Positions 3 to 23,958 of a stretch of 34,844 nt of DNA are shown here, piece by piece; the stretch's first letter is position 1, and each line of letters begins with the position of its first letter. A program made the translations under genes and the position numbers. The notes under the pieces were generated by a model. It saw nothing but the letters and a program-made list of their open reading frames with translations. It did not search any database and was not told where the DNA came from. The stretch lies in contig JAHJTO010000041.1 in the NCBI GenBank assembly GCA_018829845.1, positions 1-34,844 on the forward strand. The letters are read 5' to 3'. Source of the stretch: Nanobdellota archaeon. GTDB taxonomy: Archaea > Nanobdellota > Nanobdellia > Pacearchaeales > JAHJTO01.

Positions 3-983
3 TCAAAAAAATCAAATTCAAAGAATGAATATGACATTATAATAGTCGGGGCAGGACCTGCAGGAATCGCAGCAGGAATTTATACTGCAAGACAGAAACT
101 AAAAACATTAATGATAACAAAGGATATTGGGGGTCAACTTTCTTTGACGGCTTCCATTGAAAATTGGCCCGGAATAAAATCAATATCAGGATATGGTCTC
201 CTCAAAACTTTTGAAGATCACCTAAAACAATATGATCTTGCTCTTGAAAACGGGGAGGTTTTAGACATAGGAAAGAATGGAAAGGGATTTGTGGTAAAGA
301 CCCCCGATAAAACATTCTTCTGCAGGGCAGTTATTGTTACTGCTGGAAGAATATCAAGAAAATTGAATGTTCCTGGTGAAAATAAATATCTTGGAAAGGG
401 GGTTTCATCCTGTGGGACCTGCGATGCCCCGCTTTTCAATGGAAAGGAAGTTGCAGTGGCCGGAACAGGAAATACCGCAATGAATGTTGTCCTATTGCTA
501 TCAAGATATGCAAAAAAAATAAATCTCATAAGCAAATATGATAAATTGAAGGGGGACAAAGTTGTAGTCGATAGAATAAATGATTTAAAGAAGAAAGGAA
601 AAATTGAAATATTCTATTCTTCAAAAACTCTTGAAATTATGGGCGATGATGAGAACCCAGGGTTCTGTCATGCCGGAAAGCGAAGCATTTCCCAGCATAA
701 ATTTGTCAATGCAATTAAGATAGAACATAATGGGAAAGAAAAAATCTTGAAGGTCGATGGAATATTTGTGGAAATAGGGATGACTCCTGAAACTGAATTT
801 GCAGATGTTAAAAAGAATGAGAAAGGCGAGATAATAGTCAATAACAATTGTGAAACAGATGTAAAAGGCATCTTTGCGGCAGGAGACTGCACAGATGTTC
901 CGTATAAACAGATAATTATCTCTTCAGGAGAAGGAGCAAAGGCTGCCTTATCCGCATCAAAATATATTGATTCACTGGACTAA
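3..983 (+). CDS. trxB: Thioredoxin-disulfide reductase-like flavoprotein. The 5' end runs off the window; the frame is open back to nt 3.
   Basis: Upstream of the listed Met the same frame reads ..YDIIIVGAGPAGIAAGIY (FAD GxGxxG). Also present: redox-active CGTCD (cf. CATCD), a second dinucleotide fold VAVAGTGNTAMN, and GIFAAGDCTD near the C-terminus. Confidence 0.85.
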   Translation, partial: SKKSNSKNEYDIIIVGAGPAGIAAGIYTARQKLKTLMITKDIGGQLSLTASIENWPGIKSISGYGLLKTFEDHLKQYDLALENGEVLDIGKNGKGFVVKTPDKTFFCRAVIVTAGRISRKLNVPGENKYLGKGVSSCGTCDAPLFNGKEVAVAGTGNTAMNVVLLLSRYAKKINLISKYDKLKGDKVVVDRINDLKKKGKIEIFYSSKTLEIMGDDENPGFCHAGKRSISQHKFVNAIKIEHNGKEKILKVDGIFVEIGMTPETEFADVKKNEKGEIIVNNNCETDVKGIFAAGDCTDVPYKQIIISSGEGAKAALSASKYIDSLD

Positions 984-1253: not shown

Positions 1254-1634
1254 ATGATTGACTGTTTAACCCAAAAAGTAGAACTTAATTATATCATTCC
1301 AGCCATAAGGAAGGAAATGATAAAAATTCTTGAAAGCAAAGAGTTTACCGATGCTGAAATCTCAAGAAGACTGGGGATAACAAAGTCTGCTGTTTCCCAG
1401 TACAAGCACAATAAAAGGGGATCAAAGATAAATTTCTCTGAAAAAATAAATAAGGAAATAAAAAAATCTGCTGGAATGGTTTTGAAAGGAAAAAAAGCAG
1501 ATCCTGAAATAAACAAAATAATCAAAATGCTGAAAGAATCCAGAGGGATATGCACCATATGCAAATGCACTGAAACTGGAAATTTCAGGCACGCCAAAAA
1601 TTCGAAGAATTTTTCAGCGGAGTGTAAAAAATGA
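1254..1634 (+). CDS. HTH transcriptional regulator with a Cys-rich C-terminal tail
   Basis: HTH-like segment TDAEISRRLGITKSAVSQYKHNKRG and C-terminal CTICKC. Sits immediately upstream of nifS/iscS. The last ~25 codons overlap hairpin-repeat sequence. Confidence 0.55.
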   Translation: MIDCLTQKVELNYIIPAIRKEMIKILESKEFTDAEISRRLGITKSAVSQYKHNKRGSKINFSEKINKEIKKSAGMVLKGKKADPEINKIIKMLKESRGICTICKCTETGNFRHAKNSKNFSAECKK

Positions 1635-1657
1635 TGAGAAGCATTTTGTGTTTCGGT

Positions 1658-1689
1658 CATGCCAAAAATCTGGAGGATTTTTCAGCATG
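1658..1689 (+). promoter_or_regulatory. Leader hairpin of the CATGCC/GCATG family: GGAGG in the loop, start codon of the cysteine desulfurase gene in the 3' arm
   Basis: CATGCCAAAAATC-TGGAG-GATTTTTCAGCATG. It forms 7 bp (A/T tract) plus 5 bp (CATGC:GCATG) with a 1x2 internal loop. The final ATG is nt 1687-1689. Confidence 0.6.
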
Positions 1690-2853
1690 AAAATCTACAT
1701 GGATCATTCGGCAACAACTCCTGTGAGAAAAGAAGTTGTGAAAGCGATGGAGCCACTTTTCCTCAGAAAATTCGGCAATGCCTCCTCCATTCATTCGTTT
1801 GGAAAAGAAGCCAGGGAAGAAATGGAAGAATCAAGAAAGAAAATTGCAAGAATAATAAATGCTGAGCCAAATGAAATAATATTCACATCTGGAGGAACCG
1901 AATCTGATAACCTTGCCTTAAAGGGGATAGCCTTTGCGAACAAAGAGAAAGGAAATCATATAATCGCATCAAAGATGGAGCATGATGCCATCTTGAACAC
2001 ATGCAAATATCTTGAAAAACAAGGATTCAAAATCACTTATTTGAATGTAAACTCTGAGGGAATTATCAATCTAAATGAATTAAAAAAATCAATCAATGAT
2101 AAAACTATCCTTGTGAGCATAATGCATGCAAACAATGAAATTGGAACAATCCAGCCAATAGAAGAAATAGGAAAAATTTGTTCTAATAAGGGGATTTATT
2201 TCCATACTGATGTTGTTCAAACATTCTGCAAGGAAAAAATAGACGTAAAAACCATGAATATCTCTTTGCTTTCAGCATCATCCCATAAAATATATGGTCC
2301 AAAGGGTGTTGGATTCATGTATGTTAAAAAAGGAACTAAAATAATTTCCCTTTTGCATGGGGGCGGACATGAATTTGGAATAAGATCTGGAACGGAAAAT
2401 ATTCCGGGAATTGTTGGATTTGCAAAAGCTGCAGAAATTGCAAACAAGGAAATGGCAAAGGAAAATGCTAGATTGAAAAAGTTGAGAGACAAAATAATAA
2501 AAGAACTTTTGAAAATAAAAGATTCCAGATTAAATGGTTCTATGAAAAATAGGCTGTCAAATAATATTAACATGTCCTTCAGAGCAGTTGAAGGAGAATC
2601 ATTGATTCTATCTCTTGATGCCGAAGGCATTGCAGCTTCAACAGGCTCCGCATGTTCTTCAAGATCGCTGGAGCCTTCCCATGTTTTGGTTTCACTTGGA
2701 TTAAAACCAATAGATGCTCACGGATCATTGAGATTGACTCTTGGAAAAGACAATAATGACAAAGATGTAAAAGAAGTTATAAATAAAGTTCCAAAGATAA
2801 TAAAAAGATTGAGAATGTTCAGTCCCAAATTAAATATTGAAGGAATTTGTTAA
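1687..2853 (+). CDS. iscS: Cysteine desulfurase (NifS/IscS class)
   Basis: MKIYMDHSATTP N-terminus, PLP-lysine motif SSHKIYGPKGVG, and active-site loop STGSACSS. Start moved to the Met at 1687 (the conserved N-terminus starts here and a GGAGG lies 10 nt upstream). Confidence 0.9.
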   Translation: MKIYMDHSATTPVRKEVVKAMEPLFLRKFGNASSIHSFGKEAREEMEESRKKIARIINAEPNEIIFTSGGTESDNLALKGIAFANKEKGNHIIASKMEHDAILNTCKYLEKQGFKITYLNVNSEGIINLNELKKSINDKTILVSIMHANNEIGTIQPIEEIGKICSNKGIYFHTDVVQTFCKEKIDVKTMNISLLSASSHKIYGPKGVGFMYVKKGTKIISLLHGGGHEFGIRSGTENIPGIVGFAKAAEIANKEMAKENARLKKLRDKIIKELLKIKDSRLNGSMKNRLSNNINMSFRAVEGESLILSLDAEGIAASTGSACSSRSLEPSHVLVSLGLKPIDAHGSLRLTLGKDNNDKDVKEVINKVPKIIKRLRMFSPKLNIEGIC

Positions 2854-2860
2854 GTATAAT

Positions 2861-3175
2861 ATGGCACAAATCAAAAAAACAAAAATGATTGGGAACATCG
2901 AACGTTCCCATCATGCCGGAAAGTCACACTTTCCAAGCATAATACAGCCAAAAGAAAGCATATCAGGGGATATGACAATTTCAGAAGTTGTCACACATTA
3001 TCCTGAGACAATGCCTGTTTTCATGCAACATGGCATGACCTGCTTTGGATGTCCCATGGCGCTGATGGAAACGGTGGCGCAGGGAGCAGAGGCCCATGGA
3101 ATGGATGCAGAAGATCTTGTTGAGGCATTGAACAAGGCTATAAAAAAGAAAAAGAAAATCAAAGTAATAAAATAA
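2861..3175 (+). CDS. DUF1858 / hybrid-cluster-protein-associated redox-disulfide-type small protein
   Basis: DMTISEVVTHYPETMPVFMQHGMTCFGCPMALMETVAQGAEAHGMDAEDLVEALNKAI is the typical CxxC DUF1858 pattern. The start is uncertain (2861 or a later Met). Confidence 0.7.
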   Translation: MAQIKKTKMIGNIERSHHAGKSHFPSIIQPKESISGDMTISEVVTHYPETMPVFMQHGMTCFGCPMALMETVAQGAEAHGMDAEDLVEALNKAIKKKKKIKVIK

Positions 3176-3176
3176 C

Positions 3177-4802
3177 ATGGCATTAGACTATACCAAAGAA
3201 GTAATGAAGCATTTCACACATCCCAAAAATTTGGGTGAGATGAAAGACGCAGATGGAATAGGGAAAGTTGGGAACATAACCTGCCTCGTTCCAGGACAAA
3301 AGATACATTCAAACCATTCTTTGATAGAGATAGAAAAATTGGATGTGGGGGATTCTGTTTTAAATCATGAAGGAAACCCTGATAAGGTCAGTAGTAATCA
3401 TTCAAGAGAACATAATGGAAAAGTCATAGAACTAAAAAATAGCCTCGGAAAGATAAAATTGACCCCTGAACATTTGATCCTTGCGATTAAAACTCCAAAA
3501 GGCCAAAAGTTCTTAAGGAATAAATGGAGAAGAACCATTGTTCCCTCATGGTATCATGCTGCAGATTTGAATAAAAGAGATATAGTCCTTTATCCAATTG
3601 TTAGAAAGGCCGAAGATATTGAAACAATCGATTTGAATATTCCAAAATTAAAGTGGGATTTTAGAAGTAAATCTATTCCAAAGAAAATACCTATTAACGG
3701 GGATTTTCTCAGATTAGCAGGATATTACTTATCAGAAGGCCATGCTTCATTAAGAATAACAAATGTCTGTTTGAACTTCTCTTTTCATATTGACCAGAAA
3801 GATTATGCGAATGACATTAAGAGCATAGCAAAAGAACTTTTTAACCTAGATGCAGTAATCAGAGAGAATATACCTCATAAGACCTTGGTAGTGTACTTGC
3901 ACAGCGCTCCTTTGACAAGATTCTTTAAGGATTTGTTTGAAAAAGGCGCAGAGAATAAGAGAATCCCCGAGTTTATGATGATTCTTCCTTCAGAAAAGCA
4001 AAAAGAACTTATTAAAGGGCTTTGGAGAGGTGATGGCTATGTGAACTTGAAAAGAGCCGGCCCCCGAGCAGGGTATGTTACGATTTCTTCCACCCTTATA
4101 CAACAGATAAAGACATTGCTGCTAAGGCAATGCATTGTTCCTTCAATGTATGAAGAGGCTGAACAAACAATAAGGGGAGTCAAGCATAGAAGATCATTTA
4201 GAATACATGTGGGCCAAAGAGAATCCTTAGTAAAATTATGTAAAATTCTTAATATAGATTATATCCCAAAATCTTATCCATCAATAGATTCATGGTTCAC
4301 TAATTATAATCTTTATACCCCTATAACCGGAATAAATAAAGTAGATTACATTGGAAAGGTCCATAATTTAGAAGTTGAAAACTCTCACTCTTTCACTTCA
4401 GAGGCATTTACTCTTCACAATTGTGGCGATATCATAATGATTTTCATAAAAATCGGAAAGAGAAAATCAGGCGAAGAATTCATCAAAGATATAAAATTCA
4501 AAACTTTAGGATGCGCTGCAGCAATAGCCACAACAAGCATGATGACTGTTCTTGCGAAGGGAAAAACCCTTTCTGAGGCAATGAAAATAACAAATTCAGA
4601 TGTAATAAAAGGACTTGGGGGACTTCCTAAAATAAAACACCATTGCTCCCTTCTTGCCGAAGAAGGCCTTGGAGAAGCACTCTATCATTATCTTAAAAGC
4701 CACAAAAAACAAATTCCAAAATCTCTTGAAGCCAAACACAAGAGGGCGGTGCTTTCTCAAAAAGCATTCCATGCGAAGCATGATCAAAGTCATAAATCAT
4801 AA
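3177..4802 (+). CDS. iscU: IscU/NifU-N-type Fe-S scaffold protein interrupted by an intein
   Basis: N-extein is ..GIGKVGNIT. C-extein is CGDIIMIFIKI..LGCAAAIATTSMM..HHCSLLAEEGL, which carries the three IscU cysteine motifs. 380 aa of intein lie in between. Confidence 0.85.
   Translation: MALDYTKEVMKHFTHPKNLGEMKDADGIGKVGNITCLVPGQKIHSNHSLIEIEKLDVGDSVLNHEGNPDKVSSNHSREHNGKVIELKNSLGKIKLTPEHLILAIKTPKGQKFLRNKWRRTIVPSWYHAADLNKRDIVLYPIVRKAEDIETIDLNIPKLKWDFRSKSIPKKIPINGDFLRLAGYYLSEGHASLRITNVCLNFSFHIDQKDYANDIKSIAKELFNLDAVIRENIPHKTLVVYLHSAPLTRFFKDLFEKGAENKRIPEFMMILPSEKQKELIKGLWRGDGYVNLKRAGPRAGYVTISSTLIQQIKTLLLRQCIVPSMYEEAEQTIRGVKHRRSFRIHVGQRESLVKLCKILNIDYIPKSYPSIDSWFTNYNLYTPITGINKVDYIGKVHNLEVENSHSFTSEAFTLHNCGDIIMIFIKIGKRKSGEEFIKDIKFKTLGCAAAIATTSMMTVLAKGKTLSEAMKITNSDVIKGLGGLPKIKHHCSLLAEEGLGEALYHYLKSHKKQIPKSLEAKHKRAVLSQKAFHAKHDQSHKS
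3282..4421 (+). mobile_element. Intein with LAGLIDADG homing-endonuclease domain (1140 nt, 380 aa)
   Basis: Starts with Cys (CLVPGQKI) and has block B TxxH (LTPEHLIL). The two LAGLIDADG motifs are LAGYYLSEGHA and LIKGLWRGDGYV. Block F/G is VHNLEVENSHSF..TLHN, followed by a +1 Cys. Confidence 0.85.
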
Positions 4803-4805
4803 TCA

Positions 4806-5534
4806 ATGATTCCTTACAAAACATTTGGAGAATTATTTAGCATAGGTTCTTTCCATGTCCAGGCATGGGGCCTCATGGTTGCCATAGGGTTCCTTATAGG
4901 ATTATTTGTTATAACTCTTGAAGCTAAAAGAAGAAAGCTGAATCTTGATTCAATCTATGCTTTGGTCCTATTCCTTTTTATTGGGGGGGTTCTGGGAGCA
5001 AGAATCGGGTGGATTTTAACTGAGGCCCCATCAAATCTTTCTTTTATGGATTATCTGAACATATGGAATGGTGGAATGGTTTCATTTGGGGGGCTGATTG
5101 GGGGATTGATTTTTATGGCCATTTATGCTTACTACAAAAAATTGAATATGCTAACCTATCTTGATGTCTTTGCAATTGGCATTCCTCTGGGACATGCAAT
5201 AGGAAGAGTTGGATGTTATTTGATAGGAGACCATTTAGGAAAAGAAACCGTGATGCCATGGGCAATACTTATGAATGGTCAACTGACTCATCCAATAATC
5301 CTTTATGAAATAATATTGTTGTTAGGAATATTTGCTTTAATGATTTACATGAAGAATAAAAAACTTCCAAAAGGAAGTTTATTCATGACATACCTTGCGT
5401 CATATTCAGTCGGAAGATTCTTCATAGATTTTTTCAGAGTTGATCCAACATATCTTGGATTGACTATTGCGCAATATGCTTGCATAGCATTTATAATACT
5501 CTCAGGAATACTTTTGTGGAGGAAAAAACAATGA
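4806..5534 (+). CDS. lgt: Prolipoprotein diacylglyceryl transferase
   Basis: Polytopic membrane protein with GGMVSFGGLIGG, the GHAIGRVGCYLIGDHLG signature, and HPIILYEII. Confidence 0.8.
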   Translation: MIPYKTFGELFSIGSFHVQAWGLMVAIGFLIGLFVITLEAKRRKLNLDSIYALVLFLFIGGVLGARIGWILTEAPSNLSFMDYLNIWNGGMVSFGGLIGGLIFMAIYAYYKKLNMLTYLDVFAIGIPLGHAIGRVGCYLIGDHLGKETVMPWAILMNGQLTHPIILYEIILLLGIFALMIYMKNKKLPKGSLFMTYLASYSVGRFFIDFFRVDPTYLGLTIAQYACIAFIILSGILLWRKKQ

Positions 5535-10225: not shown

Positions 10226-10804
10226 TCACTTAAGAAGTTTGTATTTCTTTTCTAAAGTGTCAGATCTAAGTGGTGAATCATATGGTCTTTCAAATTGCCC
10301 GACTTTCAAGACCTCCTCATCTTTAGGAGGCATTGGTTCCCCAGTGATTATTGGCTTTACTGGCCTCAGATTCCTCTCAAAATCCCTGTGCCCTTGGAAT
10401 GGATTCCTTTCAATCTTCAGGGTATCTGTGCTGGGTGTGCTTGGAGAATAGCTTTTCTCTTCCTGGGGCTTAGGGGGGGATATGTAGGATGGGATTGCCC
10501 TTTCCCCTCGCTCATTCTTTTCTTTTCTTTCTGCAGATTGGAAATCCCCGGTTTCTGAAGGCTTATTTGCAAAGAAATTCTCAGATTGGGCGTTTTGGGT
10601 GTTTCTTGAAAAATGTGAAACTGTTTCTTGCACATTTTCTTCCAAAGATTCTTCTTTTTTCTCAGTTTCCACTTCTCCCATTTCTTTTTTATCCTCGGAA
10701 TCCTCAATTTTCTCTTCGGTTTTTTTCTCTTCTACCGACGGGGTTTTCTTTTTTTCTTTAAGTGCTTCCCATGCTTGCTTCAAATCATCTTCAATATTCC
10801 CCAT
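10226..10804 (-). CDS. Acidic, Glu/Lys/Pro/Ser-rich, probably disordered protein (hypothetical)
   Basis: Long ORF whose start codon sits in a family leader hairpin containing GGAGG. Low-complexity composition; no recognisable domain. Confidence 0.5.
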   Translation of the reverse strand: MGNIEDDLKQAWEALKEKKKTPSVEEKKTEEKIEDSEDKKEMGEVETEKKEESLEENVQETVSHFSRNTQNAQSENFFANKPSETGDFQSAERKEKNERGERAIPSYISPPKPQEEKSYSPSTPSTDTLKIERNPFQGHRDFERNLRPVKPIITGEPMPPKDEEVLKVGQFERPYDSPLRSDTLEKKYKLLK

Positions 10805-10831
10805 GCTGAGAAACCTCCGGTTTCTGGCATG
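10802..10831 (-). promoter_or_regulatory. Leader hairpin of the CATGCC/GCATG family at the start of the acidic-protein gene
   Basis: Sense strand: CATGCCAGAAACC-GGA-GGTTTCTCAGCATG. GGAGG spans the loop and 3' arm. The final ATG is the start codon (10804-10802). Confidence 0.6.
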
Positions 10832-10833
10832 CT

Positions 10834-10901
10834 TTGAAGCTTCGCTTCAAGCACGCCTGGAATTTCATTCCTTCGTGTGACAAAAATCTTTGATTTATCA
10901 T
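10834..10901 (-). repeat. Additional leader hairpins upstream of the acidic-protein gene
   Basis: TTGAAGC-TTC-GCTTCAA is a perfect 7-bp stem (10834-10850). GGAAT-TTC-ATTCC follows. CAAAAATCTTTGATTTATCAT (10881-10901) is homologous to 23933-23956. Confidence 0.5.
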
Positions 10902-11005
10902 ATTAATGGAATACCATACATAGTATATTAATTTTGCTAAGACTACAATAAAAAATCAATTCAGCAAAAGTTTTATAAATAAAAACATATTATTTTTTTC
11001 AATCA

Positions 11006-11034
11006 GTGCTGAAAAACGTAGTTTTTCAAGCATG
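11006..11034. repeat. Orphan copy of the A/T-tract hairpin family
   Basis: GTGCTGAAAAAC-GTA-GTTTTTCAAGCATG. No GGAG in the loop, and the terminal ATG is followed directly by TAA. Confidence 0.45.
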
Positions 11035-11305: not shown

Positions 11306-11380
11306 GGAAACCATTGGTTTCCCATCATAACCTGCGTCAAATTTGCCGTCCTGCTTTTTCTAAAATTTTTTTCTTTTTTT
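11306..11380 (+). terminator. Putative terminator: perfect hairpin followed by T-tracts
   Basis: GGAAACC-ATT-GGTTTCC (11306-11322), then CTGCTTTTTC..ATTTTTTTCTTTTTTT (11351-11380). Confidence 0.4.
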
Positions 11381-11438
11381 CACATGATGACGACAGTCTG
11401 TTGCATAATTTTATAAATATCTCTGACTTTGGAGATTT

Positions 11439-12164
11439 ATGAATTACAAAAAGAGGGTGCTTGGGCTAGCATTCTTACTAGTAGGTATTTTTTTCACAGC
11501 AAATTCACAATTGGTTCTCACCGGAGGGATTATTGGAATCGGAGATACCCCTTATTCTGTTAATTTTATTTTAGGAATATGTTTAATCGCCATTTCAATG
11601 ATAATCTTTATTGGGTCCTCATTGGAAGACCGAACCTATGAGAAGGGAAAATCGGAAGATTATTATGATCCGGCCATAAAATCATTCAGAAGATGGCTTC
11701 AAAAAGAAAAGGGTTTCAAAGTAACATATGGGACGGCAAAGAGGGAATATGAAAAGATTGAACAGAAATACTACAAAAACCTGGGGGAGAAGGGTGCGAA
11801 GGAAGGGTATGGGGATAGGCCATTGAAGGGAATTGAAGATCTTTATAAAAAAATTCATGATGGAGATTATAAACCTCCAAGGAGCACCCACACAGAAAAA
11901 TTAAGGAGAAAGTTCTTGGATAACGAGGCTTCAAGAGCCCTCAATGAAAAGAGGATATATACAAAAAGAAAGGATCTGATATGGCTCTCCAATAAGTGCG
12001 GTTATGATTTAATGGAGGGAGCCAAGGAGGGAACCAGAGTTTTAGACCAGAAAGGGGATGTATTAACCGTCATCCCAGAACATCCTGATTGTAACCGCAA
12101 TACTGCAAAAGAGATAATGTTTGCTTTGGCTACTGGTGAAAGTTCATATAGAAAACGTAAATGA
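11439..12164 (+). CDS. Membrane-anchored hypothetical protein with weak HicA/YcfA-like C-terminal resemblance
   Basis: Two N-terminal TM helices. The C-terminus GAKEGTRVLDQKGDVLTVIPEHPDCNRNTAKEIMFALATG loosely follows the HicA pattern (..tiP.H.....gt...Il..). Confidence 0.45.
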   Translation: MNYKKRVLGLAFLLVGIFFTANSQLVLTGGIIGIGDTPYSVNFILGICLIAISMIIFIGSSLEDRTYEKGKSEDYYDPAIKSFRRWLQKEKGFKVTYGTAKREYEKIEQKYYKNLGEKGAKEGYGDRPLKGIEDLYKKIHDGDYKPPRSTHTEKLRRKFLDNEASRALNEKRIYTKRKDLIWLSNKCGYDLMEGAKEGTRVLDQKGDVLTVIPEHPDCNRNTAKEIMFALATGESSYRKRK

Positions 12165-12170
12165 TAAAAT

Positions 12171-12488
12171 TTATTCTAATTTGTCAATTAATCCATACCC
12201 TTTTTTGAACTTGAAAATTGATTGATGGAATCTTCTGTATAATGATGGATAGTCATCTTTTGCAAGTTCTACAATTGAAGTAACATCGGAGTATTCTTCA
12301 GAACCGATTAATTTAGAATCAAGAGAGTTTATGTCAAAATCCTCTTTAGGATCATTCTTCTTTAGTCCTTCAAAAACAAGCTTTTTTTGATATCTGACTA
12401 TCCTATTCCTCAGAGTATTCATTTCAGAGATCTTTCTCAAGAGTGTAACTTCTTCAAATGTTTTGTAATTGTGGCTTTCCATAGTCAA
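12171..12488 (-). CDS. Hypothetical protein (105 aa)
   Basis: ORF only. Lies downstream of, and on the same strand as, the 498-aa ORFan. Confidence 0.45.
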   Translation of the reverse strand: MTMESHNYKTFEEVTLLRKISEMNTLRNRIVRYQKKLVFEGLKKNDPKEDFDINSLDSKLIGSEEYSDVTSIVELAKDDYPSLYRRFHQSIFKFKKGYGLIDKLE

Positions 12489-14090: not shown

Positions 14091-14208
14091 GCTTAGAAAT
14101 GCTTGAAAATGTTTTCATTTTCGGCATGCCCAGAAGCACTGAGAAATTGTTTCACAATTTCTGGTGTGCCCAAAACATTCTTGGTTTTGAAGCACTTTGC
14201 TTCTAAGC
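14091..14208. repeat. Cluster of nested and overlapping family hairpins closed by an 8-bp outer helix. Candidate structured RNA or compound palindromic element.
   Basis: Outer helix: GCTTAGAA (14091-98) with TTCTAAGC (14201-08). Inner hairpins are at 14099-14128 (ATGCTTGAAAATG/CATTTTCGGCAT), 14136-14169 (GCACTGAGAAATTG/CAATTTCTGGTGTGC), 14166-14195 (GTGCCCAAAAC/GGTTTTGAAGCAC) and 14189-14203 (GAAGCA-CTT-TGCTTC). Confidence 0.5.
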
Positions 14209-14321
14209 ATCTTCGATTTCTTAGCGTTTTTTACAATTTATAGAGGGAAAAGACATATAAAAAGGTTATCTATTATGTTGACGTTGCAAAGGTTTTTTAA
14301 TAAAATTATCTTCAGAGTATA

Positions 14322-14846
14322 ATGAAAAGAGCACTAATTATCATAGCAGAAAGGGATTTTCAAGATATGGAGTATTCTAACACTCGAAAAGCCCTTGAGT
14401 CTTCCGGAATATCTGTTGCCGTCGCCTCTAAAACAAGGGGGATGAAAAGAGGGGTTTTGGGAAATGAGGTGGAAGCCGAATTATCATTTAAGGACATAAA
14501 AATCAAAGATTTTGACGCGGTTGCATTCATAGGCGGAGAGGGAGCACAGGAGTATATCGAAGATGATGGGGCCCTGGGGATTGTAAAATCATTTTTTGAG
14601 GGGGGGAAGATAACTGCCGCCATTTGCATTGCTCCGCTCATACTCGCTTCTTCAGGAATACTCAATGGTAAAAAGATAACTGCCTGGGACAATGGAAGGA
14701 GAATCCAAATAAGAAAACTAGAAAGATCAGGAGCAATCTTCGTTGGCGGAAATGTTGTTGTTGATAGGAACATAATCACGGCAGATGGGCCGGGAGCAGC
14801 GTCAGAATTCGGAAAGGAAATAGCCAAGGGATTGAATAAAAAATGA
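14322..14846 (+). CDS. DJ-1/PfpI family protein
   Basis: FDAVAFIGGEGA, the nucleophile-elbow cysteine in ITAAICIAPLILA, and VVVDRNIITADGPGAA. Confidence 0.85.
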   Translation: MKRALIIIAERDFQDMEYSNTRKALESSGISVAVASKTRGMKRGVLGNEVEAELSFKDIKIKDFDAVAFIGGEGAQEYIEDDGALGIVKSFFEGGKITAAICIAPLILASSGILNGKKITAWDNGRRIQIRKLERSGAIFVGGNVVVDRNIITADGPGAASEFGKEIAKGLNKK

Positions 14847-15283
14847 AAAGAGAAAGTGCAGTGCATCTTCTGTTGTTTCTAGGAATAGTAATTTTGGATC
14901 TTGCAACAAAATATACCCTTAGCGAGGGGTGCCTTTGGAAATTCTGTGTGAGCAGGGCGTTCAATACAGGGGCATCTTTTGGAATATTTGATGGAATGAC
15001 CTCATTGTTTATCGTTGTTGCTGCAATGGTTTTGGTGGTTATGGCTTATCTTTACGAGAAATCAAATGCAAGAATAAAGCTGGCATTTGTGTTCATAGGG
15101 GCTGGAACCATTGGAAACCTCATAAATCGTGTTTTCTTAGGAGGAGTCATCGATCTATTCAGGATATTTAACTCATCATCATTCAACCTTGCAGATTTAA
15201 GCAACCTAATTGGTGGAATAATCCTTCTTTTTATTGTGTTTTTCGATGGTAAACAAGAGCAGAAGAAAACTTTTAAAGCCTGA
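14843..15283 (+). CDS. lspA: Lipoprotein signal peptidase (signal peptidase II)
   Basis: FNTGASFG, GAGTIGNLINRVFLGGVIDLF and FNLADLSN; both aspartates of the VxDF / NxAD pair are present. ATGA overlap with the DJ-1 gene. Confidence 0.8.
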   Translation: MKRESAVHLLLFLGIVILDLATKYTLSEGCLWKFCVSRAFNTGASFGIFDGMTSLFIVVAAMVLVVMAYLYEKSNARIKLAFVFIGAGTIGNLINRVFLGGVIDLFRIFNSSSFNLADLSNLIGGIILLFIVFFDGKQEQKKTFKA

Positions 15284-15345
15284 ATTCTATGGATTTGATA
15301 TAGGGGTGTAACATTATTCTATGTTAAGAAATAAAATATTTCTAA

Positions 15346-15387
15346 CATGCCGAAAAAACGGCAGAGGAGGGGGTTTTTTCTAGCATG
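15346..15387 (+). promoter_or_regulatory. Leader hairpin of the CATGCC/GCATG family at the gltX start
   Basis: CATGCC-GAAAAAAC-GGCAGAGGAGGGG-GTTTTTTC-TA-GCATG forms 8 bp plus 5 bp. GAGGAGG is in the 13-nt loop. The final ATG is nt 15385-15387. Confidence 0.6.
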
Positions 15388-17382
15388 AAAAAGAAGATTG
15401 AAATAGAAGAGGCTAAGGAAGAGGATCTCGCCATGAATACCCACATTCCTTTCGAAATCCCTGCCGAACCTGGGAAAGAAAAAGTCAAGAAAACCAGGAA
15501 GAAATCAGCAAGCATTAAAAAACCACGTAAGAAAACTCTAAAGAAGCCTGCAAAGAAAAAGCCAAAATCAGCGGTAAAGGAAAGGCAGGAGACAATAATA
15601 GAAGCAGTCGCTATCAAAAAGGTCAAGGAAATTGCCACAAAGCCATTAAAAATTGAGAAAAAACCTGAAGTTAAGAAGGATATGGCAGTAGAAAAGGAAA
15701 CGCAAAGAAATGCCACCTTTGAAGAAAAGATGTTCGCCTATGCTCTTGAAAATGCTGTTGAACACGAAGGAAAATGCATGCCCAATGCTATTCTTGGAAA
15801 ATTGTTCCAAGAAGGATTGAAGAAAGAGAAGATAAAAGATGTTATGCCCAAAATCCAAAATGCGGTTTCTAAAGTAAATTCTATGAATTTTAATGATCAA
15901 AAAATTGAATTTGAAAAACAGAAAGATATTGTTAAAGTTTTCAAACATGAAACAAGGCAAGAACTGCCGGAACTTCCAAATGCTGTTCAAGGAAAGGTTG
16001 TTGTAAGGTCGGCACCATTCCCTTCGGGAGCATTGCATATAGGAAATGCCATCCCAATCATAATAAATGAAGAATATGCCAAGAGATACAATGGAAAGCA
16101 CATTCTTGTCATAGATGATACAATAGGCAGTGAGGAAAAACAGATAGTTCCAGCAGCATATAAAATGATAGAGGACAGCATGAAGTGGCTTGGAGTCAAA
16201 TATGATCCAACAGTCATATACAAATCCGACAGATTGAATATTTATTACAAATATGCTGAGATGCTCATTAACAAAGAAGCAGCATATGTATGTTTCTGCA
16301 ATGTTGAAAAATTGAGAGACAATAGAGAAAAGGGATTGGCATGTACATGCAGGAGTAAAGATTATCCGACAAACATAAAGGATTGGAAATGGATGTTTTC
16401 AGCCGAGGCTAAACAGGGAATGGCAATACTGAGATTGAAGACAGATATGAAGCATCCAAATCCGGCATTTAGGGATAGAGTATTATTCAGAATTTCTGAC
16501 AGAGAACACCCCCGAATAAAGGGGTTGAAGGTGTGGCCTATGCTTGAATTTTCATGGGCTGTTGATGATCACTTGCTTGGAATAACCCATATAATCCGGG
16601 GAAACCAACTAAGGATGGAGACTGAGATGGAAGAGTTCATATGGAAAATACTTGATTGGCCGCCCCTAACAACAGTCTACACCCCAAGAATATCCTTTGA
16701 AGGAGTTTCATTCAGCAAGAGCAAATCCCAGGATGAAATAAGAAACGGACTGTATCTTGACTGGAGCGATCCAAGAACATGGAGCCTTCAAAGTTTTGAT
16801 AAAAGAGGAATACTTCCACAGGCAATAAGGAATCTTATAGTGCAATTTGGAATGTCTGAGAAAGAGCATTTGTCAATCCCTCTTGACATGCTTTATGCCG
16901 AAAATAGAAAGCTCATTGAAAATTCAAACAGGTATTTCTTTGTTTCAAAGCCAAAGAAGATAAGTGTCATATGGGCTCCAAAGAAAAAGGTTTTCTTGCC
17001 GCTTCATGCCCAACATCCAGAAAAAGGAAAAAGAGAAATAAATGCCGGCACTAGCTTTTACATATCTGAAGAAGACCATAGGAAAATTGTTGAAGGTAAA
17101 ACCTACAGACTCATGAATCTTTTCAATTTCGAAAAGAAGAAAGGAAAATTTGTTTTTGTTTCAGAAGAGCACAATAATCAACTTTGTGCTCCAATGTTCC
17201 ATTGGCTTCCTGCCTCAAAGGAAACGCAGAAGGGAAAGGTCTTCATGCCGGATGGAACATGGAATGAAGGATATGTTGAAGCCGGAGCTTCAAAACTTCC
17301 CGAGGGATCAATTGTACAATTTGAAAGATTCGGATTCTGCAAGAAACAAAAGGGAAATGAATTCTGGTTTGCGCACAAATAG
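15385..17382 (+). CDS. gltX: Glutamyl-tRNA synthetase, archaeal/eukaryal type, with a ~100-aa Lys-rich N-terminal extension
   Basis: Collinear with archaeal GluRS: FAYALENAVEHEGK.., VVRSAPFPSGALHIGNAIPIIINEEYAKRYNG (a HIGH-class motif, here HIGN), WPMLEFSWAVDDHLLGITHIIRG, and C-terminal FERFGFC..FWFAHK. Confidence 0.9.
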   Translation: MKKKIEIEEAKEEDLAMNTHIPFEIPAEPGKEKVKKTRKKSASIKKPRKKTLKKPAKKKPKSAVKERQETIIEAVAIKKVKEIATKPLKIEKKPEVKKDMAVEKETQRNATFEEKMFAYALENAVEHEGKCMPNAILGKLFQEGLKKEKIKDVMPKIQNAVSKVNSMNFNDQKIEFEKQKDIVKVFKHETRQELPELPNAVQGKVVVRSAPFPSGALHIGNAIPIIINEEYAKRYNGKHILVIDDTIGSEEKQIVPAAYKMIEDSMKWLGVKYDPTVIYKSDRLNIYYKYAEMLINKEAAYVCFCNVEKLRDNREKGLACTCRSKDYPTNIKDWKWMFSAEAKQGMAILRLKTDMKHPNPAFRDRVLFRISDREHPRIKGLKVWPMLEFSWAVDDHLLGITHIIRGNQLRMETEMEEFIWKILDWPPLTTVYTPRISFEGVSFSKSKSQDEIRNGLYLDWSDPRTWSLQSFDKRGILPQAIRNLIVQFGMSEKEHLSIPLDMLYAENRKLIENSNRYFFVSKPKKISVIWAPKKKVFLPLHAQHPEKGKREINAGTSFYISEEDHRKIVEGKTYRLMNLFNFEKKKGKFVFVSEEHNNQLCAPMFHWLPASKETQKGKVFMPDGTWNEGYVEAGASKLPEGSIVQFERFGFCKKQKGNEFWFAHK

Positions 17383-17402
17383 AAAATAAGAAATTTTCTG
17401 CT

Positions 17403-17431
17403 ATGCCAAAAATCCTGGAGATTTTTCAGCA
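17403..17431 (+). repeat. Orphan or decayed copy of the leader hairpin, downstream of gltX
   Basis: ATGCCAAAAATC-CTGGAG-ATTTTTCAGCA is nearly identical to the nifS copy, but the 3' end reads GCAC, not GCATG. Only a 7-codon ORF follows. Confidence 0.5.
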
Positions 17432-17488
17432 CAAATGAAAATGCTTCATAACAGTTAGTTTTATAAGTCTATTTTAAATAATAAAGAT

Positions 17489-17923: not shown

Positions 17924-19279
17924 TTTATAACCTAGTTTAGAAGAATAATATTCTCTAACCCCGATTCCAGAAATAACTTTTATTTCAGAGCATTTTTCTT
18001 TCTTTGCTATTTTCTCAGCTTCTTTCATAAGTTTTTTCCCAAGACCAATATGTTGAGAATGTTTTTCCTTTCCTTTCTCGCTCAACTTCAGCTCTTTCCC
18101 GTAGACATGGAGCTCTCTTACAAACATGAATTTGCTTTTTCCGCTACCAACAATCCTCAGCCTGCATAATCCAAACAAAACATCATTCTTATTTACGAAT
18201 TCTAAAAATATCTCTTTGCTTCCGGATGCCTTGTAGTCTATTCTTTTAAGTTTAATGCGGTTATCAATATCCTTCCTAGAATCTCTTCTGACAAATCCGA
18301 TCTCTCGGCACCTTATGCAATTACATTTCTTTTTTCTTCTTTCCAATTCTTCCAAGAGCACTTTTCTTAAATCAATCCTCTTTGTTCCGGCAACAAGAAA
18401 TGCTGGGGGGATTTCCCTCATTATCCTCATTATCCTGCAATATTTTGGAACCATAAGCTTCAGATTCAGAAGAAGTTGTATCAATTCCTCCTCTTTGTAA
18501 GGCTCATAGCCTCCCCGATAATATATTTTCTCAAGCTTCGCTCCCTTCAAAACCTGGGTGGGATAGATCTTTATTTGATCGGGACGGAAGTCCTCATCTG
18601 AGAAAACTTTTTGAAAAAGTTTTAGATCTTTCTTCAATGAGGATCCTGGCAGACCGGGCATGAGATGAAAGCCTACCTTAAAGCCATTATTTTTCAGTTT
18701 TTTTGTTGCGTCAACTACATCTTGAACACTATGTCTTCTTTTTATGAGGCCATAGATTTTATCATCAAGAACTTGAACTCCGAGTTCTACCCTTGTGGCT
18801 CCAAATTCCAAAATTCTTTTTATCTCCTCATCACCGCATACGTCTGGGCGGGTTTCAATGCATAGGGCAACGCATCGGTTCTTTGCTTTCTCATTTATCT
18901 TTTTGGCATGAGCCAAATCTTTTGACTTTTTGCCATTCAAAGCATCATAGCAATCTTTGACAAATTTATATTGAAAATCCACTGGATAATCCAGAAATGT
19001 TCCGCCCATAATTATCAATTCCACTTTGTCTGTGGGATGACCCATGATTTTGAATGCATTAATCCTCGCTTTTACTTGTTCAAATGCATCATAATTTAAC
19101 TTAGAAGCTCGGAGAACTGCAGGACTTTCAGGAGTGTATGATTGTGGGGCATTCAAAGAAGGACAATACAAACATGCTCCCTTTCTGCATGCCCTTGGGG
19201 GAAGCATGACTGCTATTGGACTGACTCCTGAAATCGTTCTTGTTGGTTTCCTAATAACCATGATAATTGAATAAAACAC
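17891..19279 (-). CDS. elp3: Elp3-type radical SAM / GNAT acetyltransferase (tRNA wobble-uridine modification)
   Basis: KPTRTISGVSPIAVM, a Cx4Cx2C cluster motif (CRKGACLYC), VELIIMGGTF, RVELGVQ, and a C-terminal GNAT (HSQHIGLGKKLMKEAEKIA). The true start may be the Met at 19261. Confidence 0.85.
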   Translation of the reverse strand: MFYSIIMVIRKPTRTISGVSPIAVMLPPRACRKGACLYCPSLNAPQSYTPESPAVLRASKLNYDAFEQVKARINAFKIMGHPTDKVELIIMGGTFLDYPVDFQYKFVKDCYDALNGKKSKDLAHAKKINEKAKNRCVALCIETRPDVCGDEEIKRILEFGATRVELGVQVLDDKIYGLIKRRHSVQDVVDATKKLKNNGFKVGFHLMPGLPGSSLKKDLKLFQKVFSDEDFRPDQIKIYPTQVLKGAKLEKIYYRGGYEPYKEEELIQLLLNLKLMVPKYCRIMRIMREIPPAFLVAGTKRIDLRKVLLEELERRKKKCNCIRCREIGFVRRDSRKDIDNRIKLKRIDYKASGSKEIFLEFVNKNDVLFGLCRLRIVGSGKSKFMFVRELHVYGKELKLSEKGKEKHSQHIGLGKKLMKEAEKIAKKEKCSEIKVISGIGVREYYSSKLGYKLVEPYMVKKI

Positions 19280-20048: not shown

Positions 20049-20396
20049 TCAATATACTTTTTTGCCTTTGATATTGAAAATTCCATTCCCATTATGCATG
20101 AAAGGTTTTTTCTTGATTCTTAAAACCAATTCAATATCCTCATTTTTTATTTTGAATCCATTTTTCAATTCAATCAACTCATTGTTAACATAGCCAAATG
20201 GCGAGGGGTTGAGATAATTTATAAAAAGATTTTTTGATTTCAGACTGTCCTCTGATAGGATTGATAAGGGGTGGGTTCTTGTTGTGGCTTTATTTTTGCT
20301 TAAATCTGAAAGCATTGAATGAGAGAAATAAACCTCCTTCGCAGGAATCTTCTCAACAAGAGGTATTCCTGTCTTTTTTGGATCTGCCTTGAACAA
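20049..20396 (-). CDS. Hypothetical protein (115 aa)
   Basis: ORF only. Confidence 0.4.
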   Translation of the reverse strand: MFKADPKKTGIPLVEKIPAKEVYFSHSMLSDLSKNKATTRTHPLSILSEDSLKSKNLFINYLNPSPFGYVNNELIELKNGFKIKNEDIELVLRIKKKPFMHNGNGIFNIKGKKVY

Positions 20397-21346: not shown

Positions 21347-23898
21347 TCTTTCCTCCCAAGCTTAAAGCTCATGAGTCTCATGGGCGTTTCTCTGCTAACA
21401 TATGGCTTGTTCAATTTTGTTTGTATTGAATATTTGTTTTCATCGGCAAGATTGCTTACTATCTTTGTTAATATCTCTCCTTGATCTTCTGTACCGTACT
21501 GTTCTAGGAATCCATTGGAATTTTCTTCCGCAAGAGACATTCCGCCATTTCTAACAATTCCCTGGGCTCTTGGAGATTCATCAAGAGTAACAAAAAGAAC
21601 TGCATCATTTGCAATCTGGTTGTTTTTGAATAATGATCTTACAGTTTCTAAATTGTTTTTGCTGAGATAGCCATTGTAATCAAGATTTATGAAATCAAAT
21701 TTAAGATTTTTGTAGGCAGTACAATTGAGCGCATTATCGATTTGTCCGGAATAAAGATTAAGCCCGTTGAAAATTTCTCCGCCCTTTATTTTCTGATTTG
21801 AGGTGATAATACTTTTCATGGCATTATATGCTCTTGAATCTTTTTCAGCTATTAGGCTCTTCTTTGGATCTATCTTGAGTAATTGGGATAGGAAAATGTA
21901 GCTTCCAAAATGTGGTCCCTCTAGACCCAGATAATTCAATTTTTCTGGCCGTGGCAGACTATCTATTGCTTCTCCAAGCATCTTTTCCCTCATTTCATCC
22001 TTTGGATAATCTTTGAAGTCATTCATTTTCTTGTTTTTTATGCTTTCAACAGTATTGTAGCTTCTCTTTATTTCTGAAGAAGTGATTATTCCGAGCTCCT
22101 TCAAATCCCTTCCCACTGTGTAGATTTCCATTTTCAATCTCTTTGCTATGTCCACTCCGCTAAGTCCTCCAAATGCAAGCTCCTCTTCCAAGCTCCTTCT
22201 TACTTCTTTTCCTTTCTGGCTTCTCATCATGCTTTTGAAGAATCCATTGAAGGTCTTCCAGTAGTTCTTCCATGAATCCCCTATGTTCTTGCTACTCCAT
22301 GATCTTGCTGTTGGAACAGTTCCATGCTTATGGTAATGTGCCTTGAGATACTCAACACCCAAAGAGACAATCTCCTTTTTGGACAGATTACTAAATAAGT
22401 TGTTCTCCTGAAGATTCTCAGCGTCAGATCTGGAAAAAGTTATTCCCCTTAATTTGGCTAAGTAGTCTAGACCCTCCTGGGGAAGATAGACGCGTTTTCT
22501 TTTTCCCATTGGCTCTGTAATTATCATGTCCCCCAAAGACTGATCTACATTCTTGGAGTGGATGAATGTACACAGAGCCACCTTGTCCATTCCAAGAAGG
22601 GCTCCTGCTTCCTTCATAGTATATCTCTTTCTCTTGACTTCTTCAGAGGGTTTGTCTTCAGGAGTTGTATTTTGATCATTTGATTTCTGTTTTATGGTCT
22701 TTACACAACCCTTAAGATAATTGACTGCTTCTTCAGATATGAGCGGGGCCCCATCTTTCCATATCAGGAGTTTCTTAAAATTTTCATCATTGGATTCATG
22801 GACCCTTCTCCATATAGTAGAATAGTGTGTACCCAAAAGTTTTGCAGTTTCTTTGACACTGTACTCTTTCTTCCCAATTGGCTCTTTCTTTACAATTGGC
22901 CCCGACTCAATCTTCTCTTGAGATGTAATTAAAGGAGAATCATATGATTCCTGTGGAATATTGACAGATTGCAAAACTTCCTCAGGAGTTTCAGCATTCA
23001 TTTCAGCATAGGCAAGATATATTCTTGGTTCGAGATGAATATCCGATTTTCTAATTGATTCTTCAAGGTTGCTCTTTAACCTTGCAACGGTTTCCCCATT
23101 GAATGTGGCTTTTATGGAATATTTCATAAGAGCATTTTCCAATTGAGTTGCCTCAAAACCCTCCAGAGATTGATTTAAGATTTTTTGCATGGATCCATTT
23201 TCCATAGAGCAAGAATTTAGTGGGAAGATAACATCGATTTTATTTTCTGAGCCGTTGGAAACTTCATTTATTAAAATTGGGAATGATAAAGGATATTTTG
23301 TCCTATCTGAAAATCCTTTTGATTTTTGATAAGCTTCTGCTATCTCTGTCCTGAGCTTGATTTCTGTTTCTTTTATTGATTCGTCCAGTGCAGCATTTCT
23401 CTTTCTTTCTTTTCTTATTGCTTTTGATTTATATCCTTCTAGAATTTCCTTCTTTTTTTCAACTTTCTCCCAATTAACAGTATCGCCTTCATTGATGGAG
23501 GCATAGTCTTTAAACCATTTGTCAAAACATGAAGAAAGTGCAAATGACTTGGCCTCAAATGCTCCATTTACTGCCTTAAGATAGGTCTTAGAAGTCTCAT
23601 TCTTGTCTTTTGATAACATCAATTCTGCATCCATGGTAGTGACTATTCCAGTCAATCTTCCCTCAAGCCCGGATATGCATTCCTTGTCATGTTTGGAAAG
23701 AAGTTTCTCCTTCACAGAATCAAGTTCTGAGTTTATTTTTTCCATGTAGGCCTTTTTGGAATTTTCAACAAGTTCTCCAAGAGCTTTTACGTCCCCCTCA
23801 TATTTTTTATCAAGGGTTGCCTTTTCTTTCTCAAACTCTTCAATCTGCTTCTTGCTCTCTTCCCATACCTGCCTTGTTTTTGTTTCTAGTTCTTCCAT
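21343..23898 (-). CDS. Large multi-domain protein: N-terminal coiled-coil, at least three HTH modules, and a C-terminal Rossmann methyltransferase-like region
   Basis: HTH modules: YSVKETAKLLGTHYSTIWRRVHES, YTMKEAGALLGMDKVALCTFIHS and SGVDIAKRLKMEIYTVGRDLKELGI. The C-terminus has YLGLEGPHFG, LIAEKD, FDFINLDYNGY and AVLFVTLDE spaced like MTase motifs I, II, IV and V. Start set at the second Met (23898), which sits in a leader hairpin with AGGAG. Confidence 0.6.
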   Translation of the reverse strand: MEELETKTRQVWEESKKQIEEFEKEKATLDKKYEGDVKALGELVENSKKAYMEKINSELDSVKEKLLSKHDKECISGLEGRLTGIVTTMDAELMLSKDKNETSKTYLKAVNGAFEAKSFALSSCFDKWFKDYASINEGDTVNWEKVEKKKEILEGYKSKAIRKERKRNAALDESIKETEIKLRTEIAEAYQKSKGFSDRTKYPLSFPILINEVSNGSENKIDVIFPLNSCSMENGSMQKILNQSLEGFEATQLENALMKYSIKATFNGETVARLKSNLEESIRKSDIHLEPRIYLAYAEMNAETPEEVLQSVNIPQESYDSPLITSQEKIESGPIVKKEPIGKKEYSVKETAKLLGTHYSTIWRRVHESNDENFKKLLIWKDGAPLISEEAVNYLKGCVKTIKQKSNDQNTTPEDKPSEEVKRKRYTMKEAGALLGMDKVALCTFIHSKNVDQSLGDMIITEPMGKRKRVYLPQEGLDYLAKLRGITFSRSDAENLQENNLFSNLSKKEIVSLGVEYLKAHYHKHGTVPTARSWSSKNIGDSWKNYWKTFNGFFKSMMRSQKGKEVRRSLEEELAFGGLSGVDIAKRLKMEIYTVGRDLKELGIITSSEIKRSYNTVESIKNKKMNDFKDYPKDEMREKMLGEAIDSLPRPEKLNYLGLEGPHFGSYIFLSQLLKIDPKKSLIAEKDSRAYNAMKSIITSNQKIKGGEIFNGLNLYSGQIDNALNCTAYKNLKFDFINLDYNGYLSKNNLETVRSLFKNNQIANDAVLFVTLDESPRAQGIVRNGGMSLAEENSNGFLEQYGTEDQGEILTKIVSNLADENKYSIQTKLNKPYVSRETPMRLMSFKLGRKE

Positions 23899-23958
23899 GC
23901 TTAGAAATTCTCCTGCCAGAATTTCTGGCATGCAAAAAATCTTTGATTTTTTATCATG
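23896..23958 (-). promoter_or_regulatory. Two tandem family hairpins forming the leader of the 851-aa gene
   Basis: Sense strand: CATGAT-AAAAAATC-AAA-GATTTTTT-GCATG, overlapping CATGCC-AGAAATTC-TGGCAGGA-GAATTTCT-AA-GCATG. The final ATG is 23898-23896. Confidence 0.6.

Follow-up and report, generated by a model that had tools for sequence, protein, structure and literature searches.

Introduction

Why should four genes in one stretch of archaeal DNA begin with the same hairpin, which holds a Shine–Dalgarno (SD) motif in its loop and the start codon in its 3′ arm? The question is raised by a 34,844-nt stretch of contig JAHJTO010000041.1 from a Nanobdellota archaeon, analysed here as a whole and called the window, in which nifS, gltX and the genes for an acidic protein and an 851-aa protein start in this way. 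We conclude that these hairpins are very probably the right halves of a palindromic, REPIN-like insertion element of ~60 bases, the SD-bearing form of which would serve as a portable translation start. An initial annotation of the window had described a recurring structure whose loop holds the SD and whose covarying arms include the start codon on the 3′ side, and this description was borne out; its interpretation as a dedicated conserved leader or thermometer was not. Missing from that account were the copies away from gene starts and the second hairpin abutting each copy, and its four instances are only the SD-bearing subset.

Results

All four hairpins were found at the positions and with the layout previously described. 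They precede an open reading frame (ORF) of the Aminotran_5/NifS type (nifS, 1658-1689, plus strand), a 192-aa acidic ORF (10831-10802, minus strand), GluRS, a class-I tRNA synthetase of the Glu/Gln type (gltX, 15346-15387, plus strand), and the ORF of the 851-aa protein, which gave only weak helix-turn-helix (HTH) matches (23932-23896, minus strand). These carrier ORFs are mutually unrelated. In all four cases the hairpin consists of CATGC, a single C, an A/T-rich inner stem of 7-9 bp with a purine-rich 5′ arm, a GGAG(G) loop, the complementary arm, a 2-nt bulge and GCATG, and in all four the ATG of GCATG opens the long ORF. Predicted folds agreed with this drawing and had energies of -9.0 to -14.6 kcal/mol (z-scores -2.2 to -4.5). 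The pattern CATGCC-N10-36-GCATG occurred five times in the window against 0.29 expected, a count that 0 of 100 shuffles reached. The fifth match, at 19188-19208, lies inside a radical-SAM gene on the other strand, lacks the A/T inner stem and falls outside the family. Exact matches to CATGCCRRAAA, a count free of selection for complementarity, formed the hairpin in seven of eight cases. The complementarity of arms that differ in sequence, to which the initial annotation had drawn attention, proved real as well: across 13 copies, partly picked for complementarity, 90.3% of cells were paired versus 78.5% after shuffling, and 25 cells were changed on both sides versus 8.6 in shuffles (0/500). A sequence-blind scan for the architecture (any 5-bp clamp, 1/2-nt bulges, G:U allowed) returned hundreds of matches in the window and relatives alike and was useless as a test.

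A covariance model (R1) built from 13 copies gave ~20 matches at E<0.01 in 44.4 kb of the window's contig, made up of the window and of locus L006, which lies on the same contig past the window's right end. The relatives' loci L003-L005 and L042-L050 together gave one match at E<0.1. The general unit reads CATGC, 1 nt, a purine-rich arm of 5-9 bp, a loop, the complementary arm, 2 nt and GCAT, 28-42 nt in total. Almost every copy is abutted by a second hairpin, a unit on the opposite strand that overlaps it by the 4-nt CATG; such partners sharing a central CATG were seen at nine or more places. The basic element is thus a head-to-head doublet of about 50-65 nt. Other arrangements were a same-orientation tandem (10855-10802) and three-unit arrays (14098-14196 and L006 12209-12317). 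SD modules start six of ~52 genes on the contig, and inspection of every gene start and intergenic stretch revealed other units away from start codons, in frame inside ORFs, past a stop codon or in reverse orientation. Half of the 14 element clusters on this contig are on a start codon or no more than 25 nt away from one. Identical copies were present in an independent Logan assembly, so the family is no assembly artefact. Scanning the window against Rfam at gathering thresholds gave no family match.

As judged by comparison with orthologues, all four start-codon hairpins are insertions. The orthologues of nifS, gltX and the genes for the acidic and 851-aa proteins in sister lineages all lack the hairpin, while the window carries 53-97 nt of extra sequence after the ancestral ATG; insertion polarity was found in this manner at eight places. 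At nifS, the stop codon of an ArsR-like ORF overlaps the nifS ATG without a spacer (AAATGAGAACC) in the syntenic locus L004. The window retains this ATGA at 1631-1634, still overlapping the ArsR-like stop, followed by a doublet of 53-56 nt and a new ATGA at 1687-1690. The start module (1631..1689, plus strand) accordingly comprises the relic ATGA, a degenerate left hairpin (~1638-1654) and the SD hairpin with the new start ATG (1687-1689). The relic ATG opens an upstream ORF (uORF) of 19 codons, the TGA of which overlaps the new ATG. Counted with its left hairpin, the nifS doublet (window 1628-1694) measures 67 nt and has 80.6% identity to a module in an unrelated metagenome contig (L010 6067-6133), with which the window's contig shares no other sequence.

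At gltX, 64 nt are inserted exactly after the ATG at 15321-15323. They are absent from L045, L047 and L048 (GluRS 82%, 82% and 75% identical), where the conserved upstream sequence runs directly into ATGAAAAAG. The module (15321..15387, plus strand) extends from this relic ATG to the new start ATG at 15385-15387 and contains a reverse-orientation unit as left hairpin (AGAAATA/TATTTCT, 15320-15349) besides the SD hairpin with GGAGG at 15366-15370. The nearest named homologues of this GluRS come from Candidatus Pacearchaeota, followed by Woesearchaeota and Nanoarchaeota, and a search of genome contigs gave a single relative (61% identity), which is without the element. The protein (665 aa) has a Lys-rich N-terminal extension of ~115 aa, encoded by the first ~115 codons of gltX (window 15385-15730), which is common only to its closest relatives P0121-P0123 (602-692 aa); other GluRS of Pacearchaeota and Woesearchaeota have ~550-580 aa and align from residue 116 on.

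At the acidic-protein gene, the start ATG of the L045 orthologue (43% identity) aligns with a relic ATG at 10901-10899, and the window has 97 nt more. Its module (10802..10901, minus strand) holds small hairpins, a tandem unit (10855-10828) and the SD hairpin ending in the new start ATG at 10804-10802. The orthologue of the 851-aa protein (P0242 in L049, 57% identity) starts ATGGTAGAAGTAGAAACAAAAACA and has neither module nor model match, whereas the gene in the window reads ATG, 59 nt and then GAAGAACTAGAAACAAAAACA; the ATG was placed here by manual reading, the MAFFT alignment being shifted. This module (23896..23958, minus strand) runs from the relic ATG at 23957-23955 through a left hairpin (AAAAATC/GATTTTT, 23929-23958, a reverse-orientation unit on the plus strand) to the new start ATG at 23898-23896.

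Insertions were equally evident away from start codons. A thioredoxin-reductase-like (TrxR) ORF contains a 51-nt in-frame insertion (~648-698) that corresponds to exactly one doublet (645..699; units 672-645, minus, and 669-699, plus) and adds 17 residues, DENPGFCHAGKRSISQH, which are absent from all eight aligned homologues (48-81% identity). At the 5′ end of the DUF1858 gene (ORF 2861-3175), a head-to-head pair (2884..2944; 2915-2884, minus, and 2912-2941, plus) accounts for a net in-frame doublet of 54 nt, the window encoding MAQIKKTK-MIGNIERSHHAGKSHFPSII-QPKE versus MAQTKKTK-TA-QPGE in L004. The ArsR-like ORF, 126 aa in the window versus 113 aa in L004, is lengthened by a pair at its 3′ end (1564..1621; 1564-1593, minus, and 1590-1621, plus), the plus-strand unit of which reads CACGCC AAAAATTC gaa GAATTTTT CA GCG. 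About 140 nt in the leader of a 498-aa gene are absent from the orthologous leader in L045; here the window has a three-unit array (14098..14196; 14128-14098 and 14168-14135, both minus, and 14165-14196, plus), none of its units being at the start codon or having an SD in the loop. L004 carries TrxR, ferredoxin, ArsR-like, nifS, DUF1858, NifU, Lgt, MarR and U32 in this order, tightly packed and free of units, and flanking gene order in the window is the same as in unit-free relatives.

Beyond this contig, we scanned JGI metagenomes with the pattern CATGCCRRAAA-N2-9-GGAG-N1-6-TTTYYNAGCATG, which carries ~48 bits by our estimate and would be expected to match by chance about once or less. The scan yielded 35 loci from many sample series, with a GC content of 0.29-0.44 and non-redundant except for two pairs. 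The terminal ATG opened an ORF in 35 of 35 loci (45-646 aa or running off the contig), and the inner stem measured 7-9 bp in 32, although the pattern does not demand full complementarity. Pfam confirmed ORFs for L13, S27e, L11, S3Ae, AspRS, SRP54, RpoB (N-terminal half), RFC and exosome Rrp4. Within these loci the covariance model detected 39 further units (E<0.01) that lie outside the pattern selection. Six of them have a GGAG loop. Five terminate in an ATG from which an ORF of 145-462 aa runs, and the other terminates in ATA, with 134 open codons behind it. Not one of the 33 units without GGAG terminates in an ATG that opens an ORF of 145 aa or more (hypergeometric p ~1e-5, computed by hand). 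Moreover, 37 of 41 SD units retain the final G of GCATG versus 12 of 46 others, so that its conservation is limited to units in which it belongs to a start codon. Where the clamp varies but the ATG is preserved, the change is compensated: CGTAC/GTATG (gyrA, L006), CATAC/GTATG and CATGT/ACATG. A head-to-head pair just past the gltX stop (17374..17433; 17405-17374, minus, and 17402-17433, plus) is instructive in this respect. Its plus-strand unit resembles the SD hairpin of nifS (~85% identity by eye rather than by computation), the CTGGAG loop included, but no gene starts there, only a 7-codon ORF following the unit. The subfamily thus carries GGAG in its own sequence.

The left hairpin is bounded on its left by an ATG in ~37 of 45 SD modules, and this ATG precedes CATGCC by 19-32 nt. 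In 11 modules it belongs to an ATGA whose TGA closes a long ORF lying upstream, and TAA-N-ATG occurs in several more. Ten of 35 modules have a TATA octamer (such as TTTATAAA) with its centre 23-26 nt before the left ATG, and at other positions there are only scattered single matches; gltX and the acidic-protein gene are of this TATA type. A TATA box at such a distance upstream of the start ATG is the geometry of archaeal leaderless promoters. In MAFFT alignments the left ATG coincides with the orthologue start for gltX and the acidic protein. The left ATG looks like the old start codon, and transcripts would begin there, so that both hairpins would be on the mRNA. The initial annotation had raised the case of a 5′ arm that is never transcribed; as far as sequence can indicate, the promoter geometry suggests transcription of both arms.

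The reading frames of the 36 modules with a left ATG show a regularity. The left ATG opens a uORF of 15-20 codons. Modulo 3, the distance between the two ATGs is 2 for 20 modules, 1 for 15 and 0 for a single one. All 36 are free of stops up to the end of the element, and in 31 of 36 the uORF stop falls between -6 and +1 of the main ATG (frame permutation mean 21.0; 0 of 20,000 reach 31) in the form of TAG (-4), TAA (-5) or TGA (+1, ATGA overlap). ORFs with in-frame copies lacking an SD (the TrxR, DUF1858 and Amidase_2 copies and a Dph2-like array) stay open through them without a stop codon. On the simplest reading, the old AUG is still used, and out-of-frame insertions survive only with an SD, an ATG and a well-placed stop, in-frame ones as peptide insertions.

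The remaining copies and neighbouring genes are described here for completeness. A single unit without SD, AGTGC T GAAAAAC gta GTTTTTC AA GCATG-TAA (11005..11034, plus strand), lies 34 nt upstream of a 72-aa ORF. At the corresponding position of the otherwise element-free L045 (~2860-2890) there is a degenerate hairpin, ATGCAGAAAGCCTCCGGGTTTTTTGCAT, which may be an older copy common to both lineages. The sequence GCTAAGAAATCGAAGATGCT(T/C)AGAAG precedes both three-unit arrays (window 14196-14240; L006 12290-12330), and this shared flank suggests a longer composite repeat of ~130 nt. An Amidase_2 gene in L006 (20118-20960) contains a head-to-head doublet (20268-20325), of which the opposite-strand unit is the stronger, and the frame stays open across it (…YAEKSGISGMTEMQSISN…). 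Also in L006, the match of a 136-aa Dph2-like ORF (11922-12332) to the Diphthamide_syn profile (302 positions) is confined to positions 1-56. The ORF opens with the three-unit hairpin array in frame (~40 aa), closes on the ATGA of the following SD module, and may represent a truncated or split gene. That this next module, c15, splits a Dph2 gene into two ORFs was not supported, the downstream 170-aa ORF (11362-11874) having no Dph2 signal. Module c15 (L006 11871-11904) is the sole SD module with its left ATG in frame (51 nt apart, no stop), and its clamp is altered to GCAAATG; the real start could be either ATG. Among other genes, the window encodes Lgt (4806-5534, PF01790) and signal peptidase II/LspA (14843-15283, PF01252), that is, lipoprotein maturation of the bacterial type, the contig's other markers being archaeal (DPANN). 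Inteins were found in NifU (Intein_splicing + LAGLIDADG; L004 13958-15589) and in GyrB and GyrA on the window's contig (L006 13373-19675). The 541-aa ORF at 3177-4802 is likely the NifU orthologue.

Discussion

The observations can be combined into the following scenario. The family would have proliferated in one Pacearchaeota-like (DPANN) lineage and in related metagenomic genomes. Its SD subfamily, with GGAG(G) in the right loop and a GCATG end, would insert directly after the original ATG, leaving the old ATG at the left edge and providing the new start codon with its last three bases. The mRNA would still begin at the old, often leaderless, start or belong to the transcript of an operon. 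From the old AUG, ribosomes would then read an out-of-frame uORF of 15-20 codons across both hairpins, melting them, and terminate at a TAG, a TAA or an ATGA overlap no more than 6 nt from the new AUG, whereupon the gene would be translated by re-initiation, by direct initiation led by the looped SD, or by both. In this scenario, the AUG-pairing hairpin would be a by-product of the palindromic build and no purpose-built thermosensor, though it may tie translation of the gene to that of the uORF. Transcription start at the left ATG, uORF translation, re-initiation and transposon-like mobility are steps that we infer from sequence.

Several points weigh against this account. A mobilising enzyme (transposase, RAYT-like or other) was absent from Pfam/NCBIfam scans of ~20 ORFs of the 44-kb contig sequence, in which the unannotated ORFs gave only weak HTH matches, and no parent insertion sequence was seen. 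The element ends can be fixed only to 1-3 nt, so that no clear target-site duplication or terminal inverted repeat, the marks of a miniature inverted-repeat transposable element, was established; ATG (or AT) flanks the insertions on both sides, but (C)ATG is also the end of the unit proper, which makes a duplication indistinguishable from element sequence. The clustering at start codons is not obviously explained by random insertion and survivorship. The metagenome set was ascertained by a pattern that already requires GGAG and ATG, the stop-free frames follow in part automatically from A-run/T-run composition, and near-identical modules in genomes of differing GC could also reflect strong functional constraint.

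More tentatively, and with somewhat less than even confidence, we consider that the SD form might be a start-codon-targeting mobile element or domesticated cassette that is translation-neutral by design, combining the old AUG, a stop-free uORF that terminates at the new AUG, a looped SD and a fresh ATG. If so, it would be converting leaderless or stop/start-coupled genes into SD-led ones with structured 5′ leaders across a DPANN lineage, as an active driver of change in initiation mode and a source of in-frame peptide insertions.

Dedicated translational control, in which the A:U-rich helix and the CAUGC:GCAUG clamp lock the start until temperature or an RNA-binding protein opens it across a regulon, appears unlikely. 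The stable hairpins (-9 to -14.6 kcal/mol) do pair the AUG, and the compensated clamp variants keep the ATG. The right hairpin pairs the AUG and leaves the SD in its loop. With three CATG boxes, other pairings can form in which the AUG is either freed or locked: when the left partner is present, the central GCAUGC can pair leftwards, and it does so in the minimum-free-energy fold of the acidic-protein leader, where the AUG is free. Yet the element is absent from the orthologues of all four genes, which argues against a dedicated regulon; units also occur within ORFs, past a stop codon and in the opposite orientation; the carrier genes are functionally miscellaneous; and the SD is exposed. In addition, G:U and A:C mismatches in the stems are about equally frequent (9 vs 6 in SD units, 18 vs 15 in others), and there is therefore no sign of RNA-strand-specific selection. 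The covariation is of the kind that a family of palindromic repeats shows, and the palindromy looks like a property of a DNA element (as in REP-type repeats) or a result of recent copying. Gating by the hairpin, for example with opening by uORF-translating ribosomes, is plausible as a model; control by temperature or by a ligand may exist but found no support here. Among specific RNA motifs, a kink-turn was rejected by inspection, as no tandem G·A pairs flank the bulge. An archaeal bulge-helix-bulge intron, defined by two 3-nt bulges separated by a 4-bp helix, was rejected as well, given an internal loop of 1 x 2 nt and ORF-internal copies that are in frame and stop-free, as translated rather than spliced sequence would be.

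The properties of the arms as DNA were considered too. The doublet could be a portable archaeal promoter and/or oligo-T terminator (insulator), with SD and ATG secondary, but we regard this as quite improbable. Archaeal RNA polymerase terminates at oligo-T, the arm pairs give an A-run followed by a T5-T7 run on both strands, and the A/T-rich left hairpin lies about 25-30 nt upstream of CATGCC. However, canonical TATA boxes are found upstream of the left ATG and outside the element, loop lengths of 3-13 nt and the resulting arm-to-ATG spacing are not promoter-like, copies in frame inside ORFs would terminate their own genes, and a T-run right before the start would attenuate the gene that follows. 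The A-tract of the right arm was likewise dismissed as the TATA box of a leaderless ATG, its distance to the ATG varying with loop length from 23 to 33 nt. Least of all do we favour recombination sites that fold as single strands with extrahelical bases for a site-specific recombinase and mark cassette boundaries in the manner of attC: the units have conserved outer boxes, an inner stem conserved by structure and not by sequence, asymmetric unpaired bases and a variable loop, and they occur at gene boundaries, but flanking gene order is unchanged in relatives without units, units occur inside ORFs, no integrase was nearby in the ORFs scanned, and the CATGC/GCATG boxes are unlike the GTTRRRY of integron attC core boxes (RYYYAAC / GTTRRRY).

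The REPIN-like insertion element that we favour would offer a concrete, datable route from leaderless archaeal genes to SD-led genes with structured 5′ untranslated regions. It would also bear on how compact genomes tolerate selfish DNA, here by in-frame insertions and an apparent uORF relay. For annotation, the modules give predictable ambiguities of start codon and uORF, which the covariance model could flag.

Comparison with known systems

RNA thermometers of the fourU and ROSE types sequester the SD and/or the AUG by weak pairs that melt with temperature. Together with coupling hairpins of the MS2 type, they resemble the present hairpins in placing a weak helix at the initiation region, which upstream translation could open. 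They differ from the present structure, which leaves the SD unpaired in the loop, belongs to a repeat family and lacks conservation at orthologous genes. Rickettsia palindromic elements (RPE), reportedly described by Ogata and co-workers in 2000, are said to insert in frame into protein genes and to be translated as an extra peptide. Both families are thus palindromic repeats found in frame inside coding genes, but RPEs are bacterial and of ~100-150 bp, whereas the in-frame insertions here have 51-60 nt. RPEs are not known to rebuild the start of translation.

Mitochondrial hairpin elements (Allomyces double-hairpin elements, yeast GC clusters and sponge RHE) are of similar build, with ~50-60 nt and one or two hairpins; treated as selfish DNA, they are scattered between the genes of compact genomes and occasionally occur in coding regions (PMC2800124; PMC4478555). 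They belong to organelle genomes, however, have no association with SD motifs or start codons, and are unrelated in sequence. For the pairing of two starts on one mRNA, a study of Escherichia coli describes 5′-terminal uAUGs on SD-led mRNAs (PMC4965119). The likeness lies in a 5′-end AUG combined with a conventional SD-led start downstream, the difference in that the E. coli arrangement is not made by insertion of a repeat element.

Among known systems, the bacterial REP/REPIN family comes closest. Two reports describe its members as short imperfect palindromes of high copy number, with an inverted doublet as replicative unit, tandem clusters and predicted folding in single-stranded DNA or mRNA (PMC3116915; PMC3733652). 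The family described here shares the short repeated imperfect palindrome (units of 28-42 nt), the inverted doublet, the clusters and the lineage-specific distribution. It differs in its archaeal host, in the CATGC/GCAT boundary that replaces the GTAG/CGTC tag, and in not being confined to extragenic space, as the TrxR, DUF1858, Amidase_2 and Dph2-like ORFs illustrate. RAYT, the Y1 HUH transposase that mobilises REP/REPIN elements in bacteria, was not detected in the Pfam/NCBIfam scans of ~20 ORFs in 44 kb of the genome. A further difference is that many copies lie exactly on start codons, to which they supply SD and ATG. Our literature searches returned no description of such elements in DPANN archaea, and as far as these searches reach, this would be the first known REPIN-like repeat family in that group. 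It would also have a property undescribed for REP families or miniature inverted-repeat transposable elements, namely precise placement at start codons with an SD and ATG of its own, before essential genes for ribosomal proteins, RNA polymerase and tRNA synthetases.

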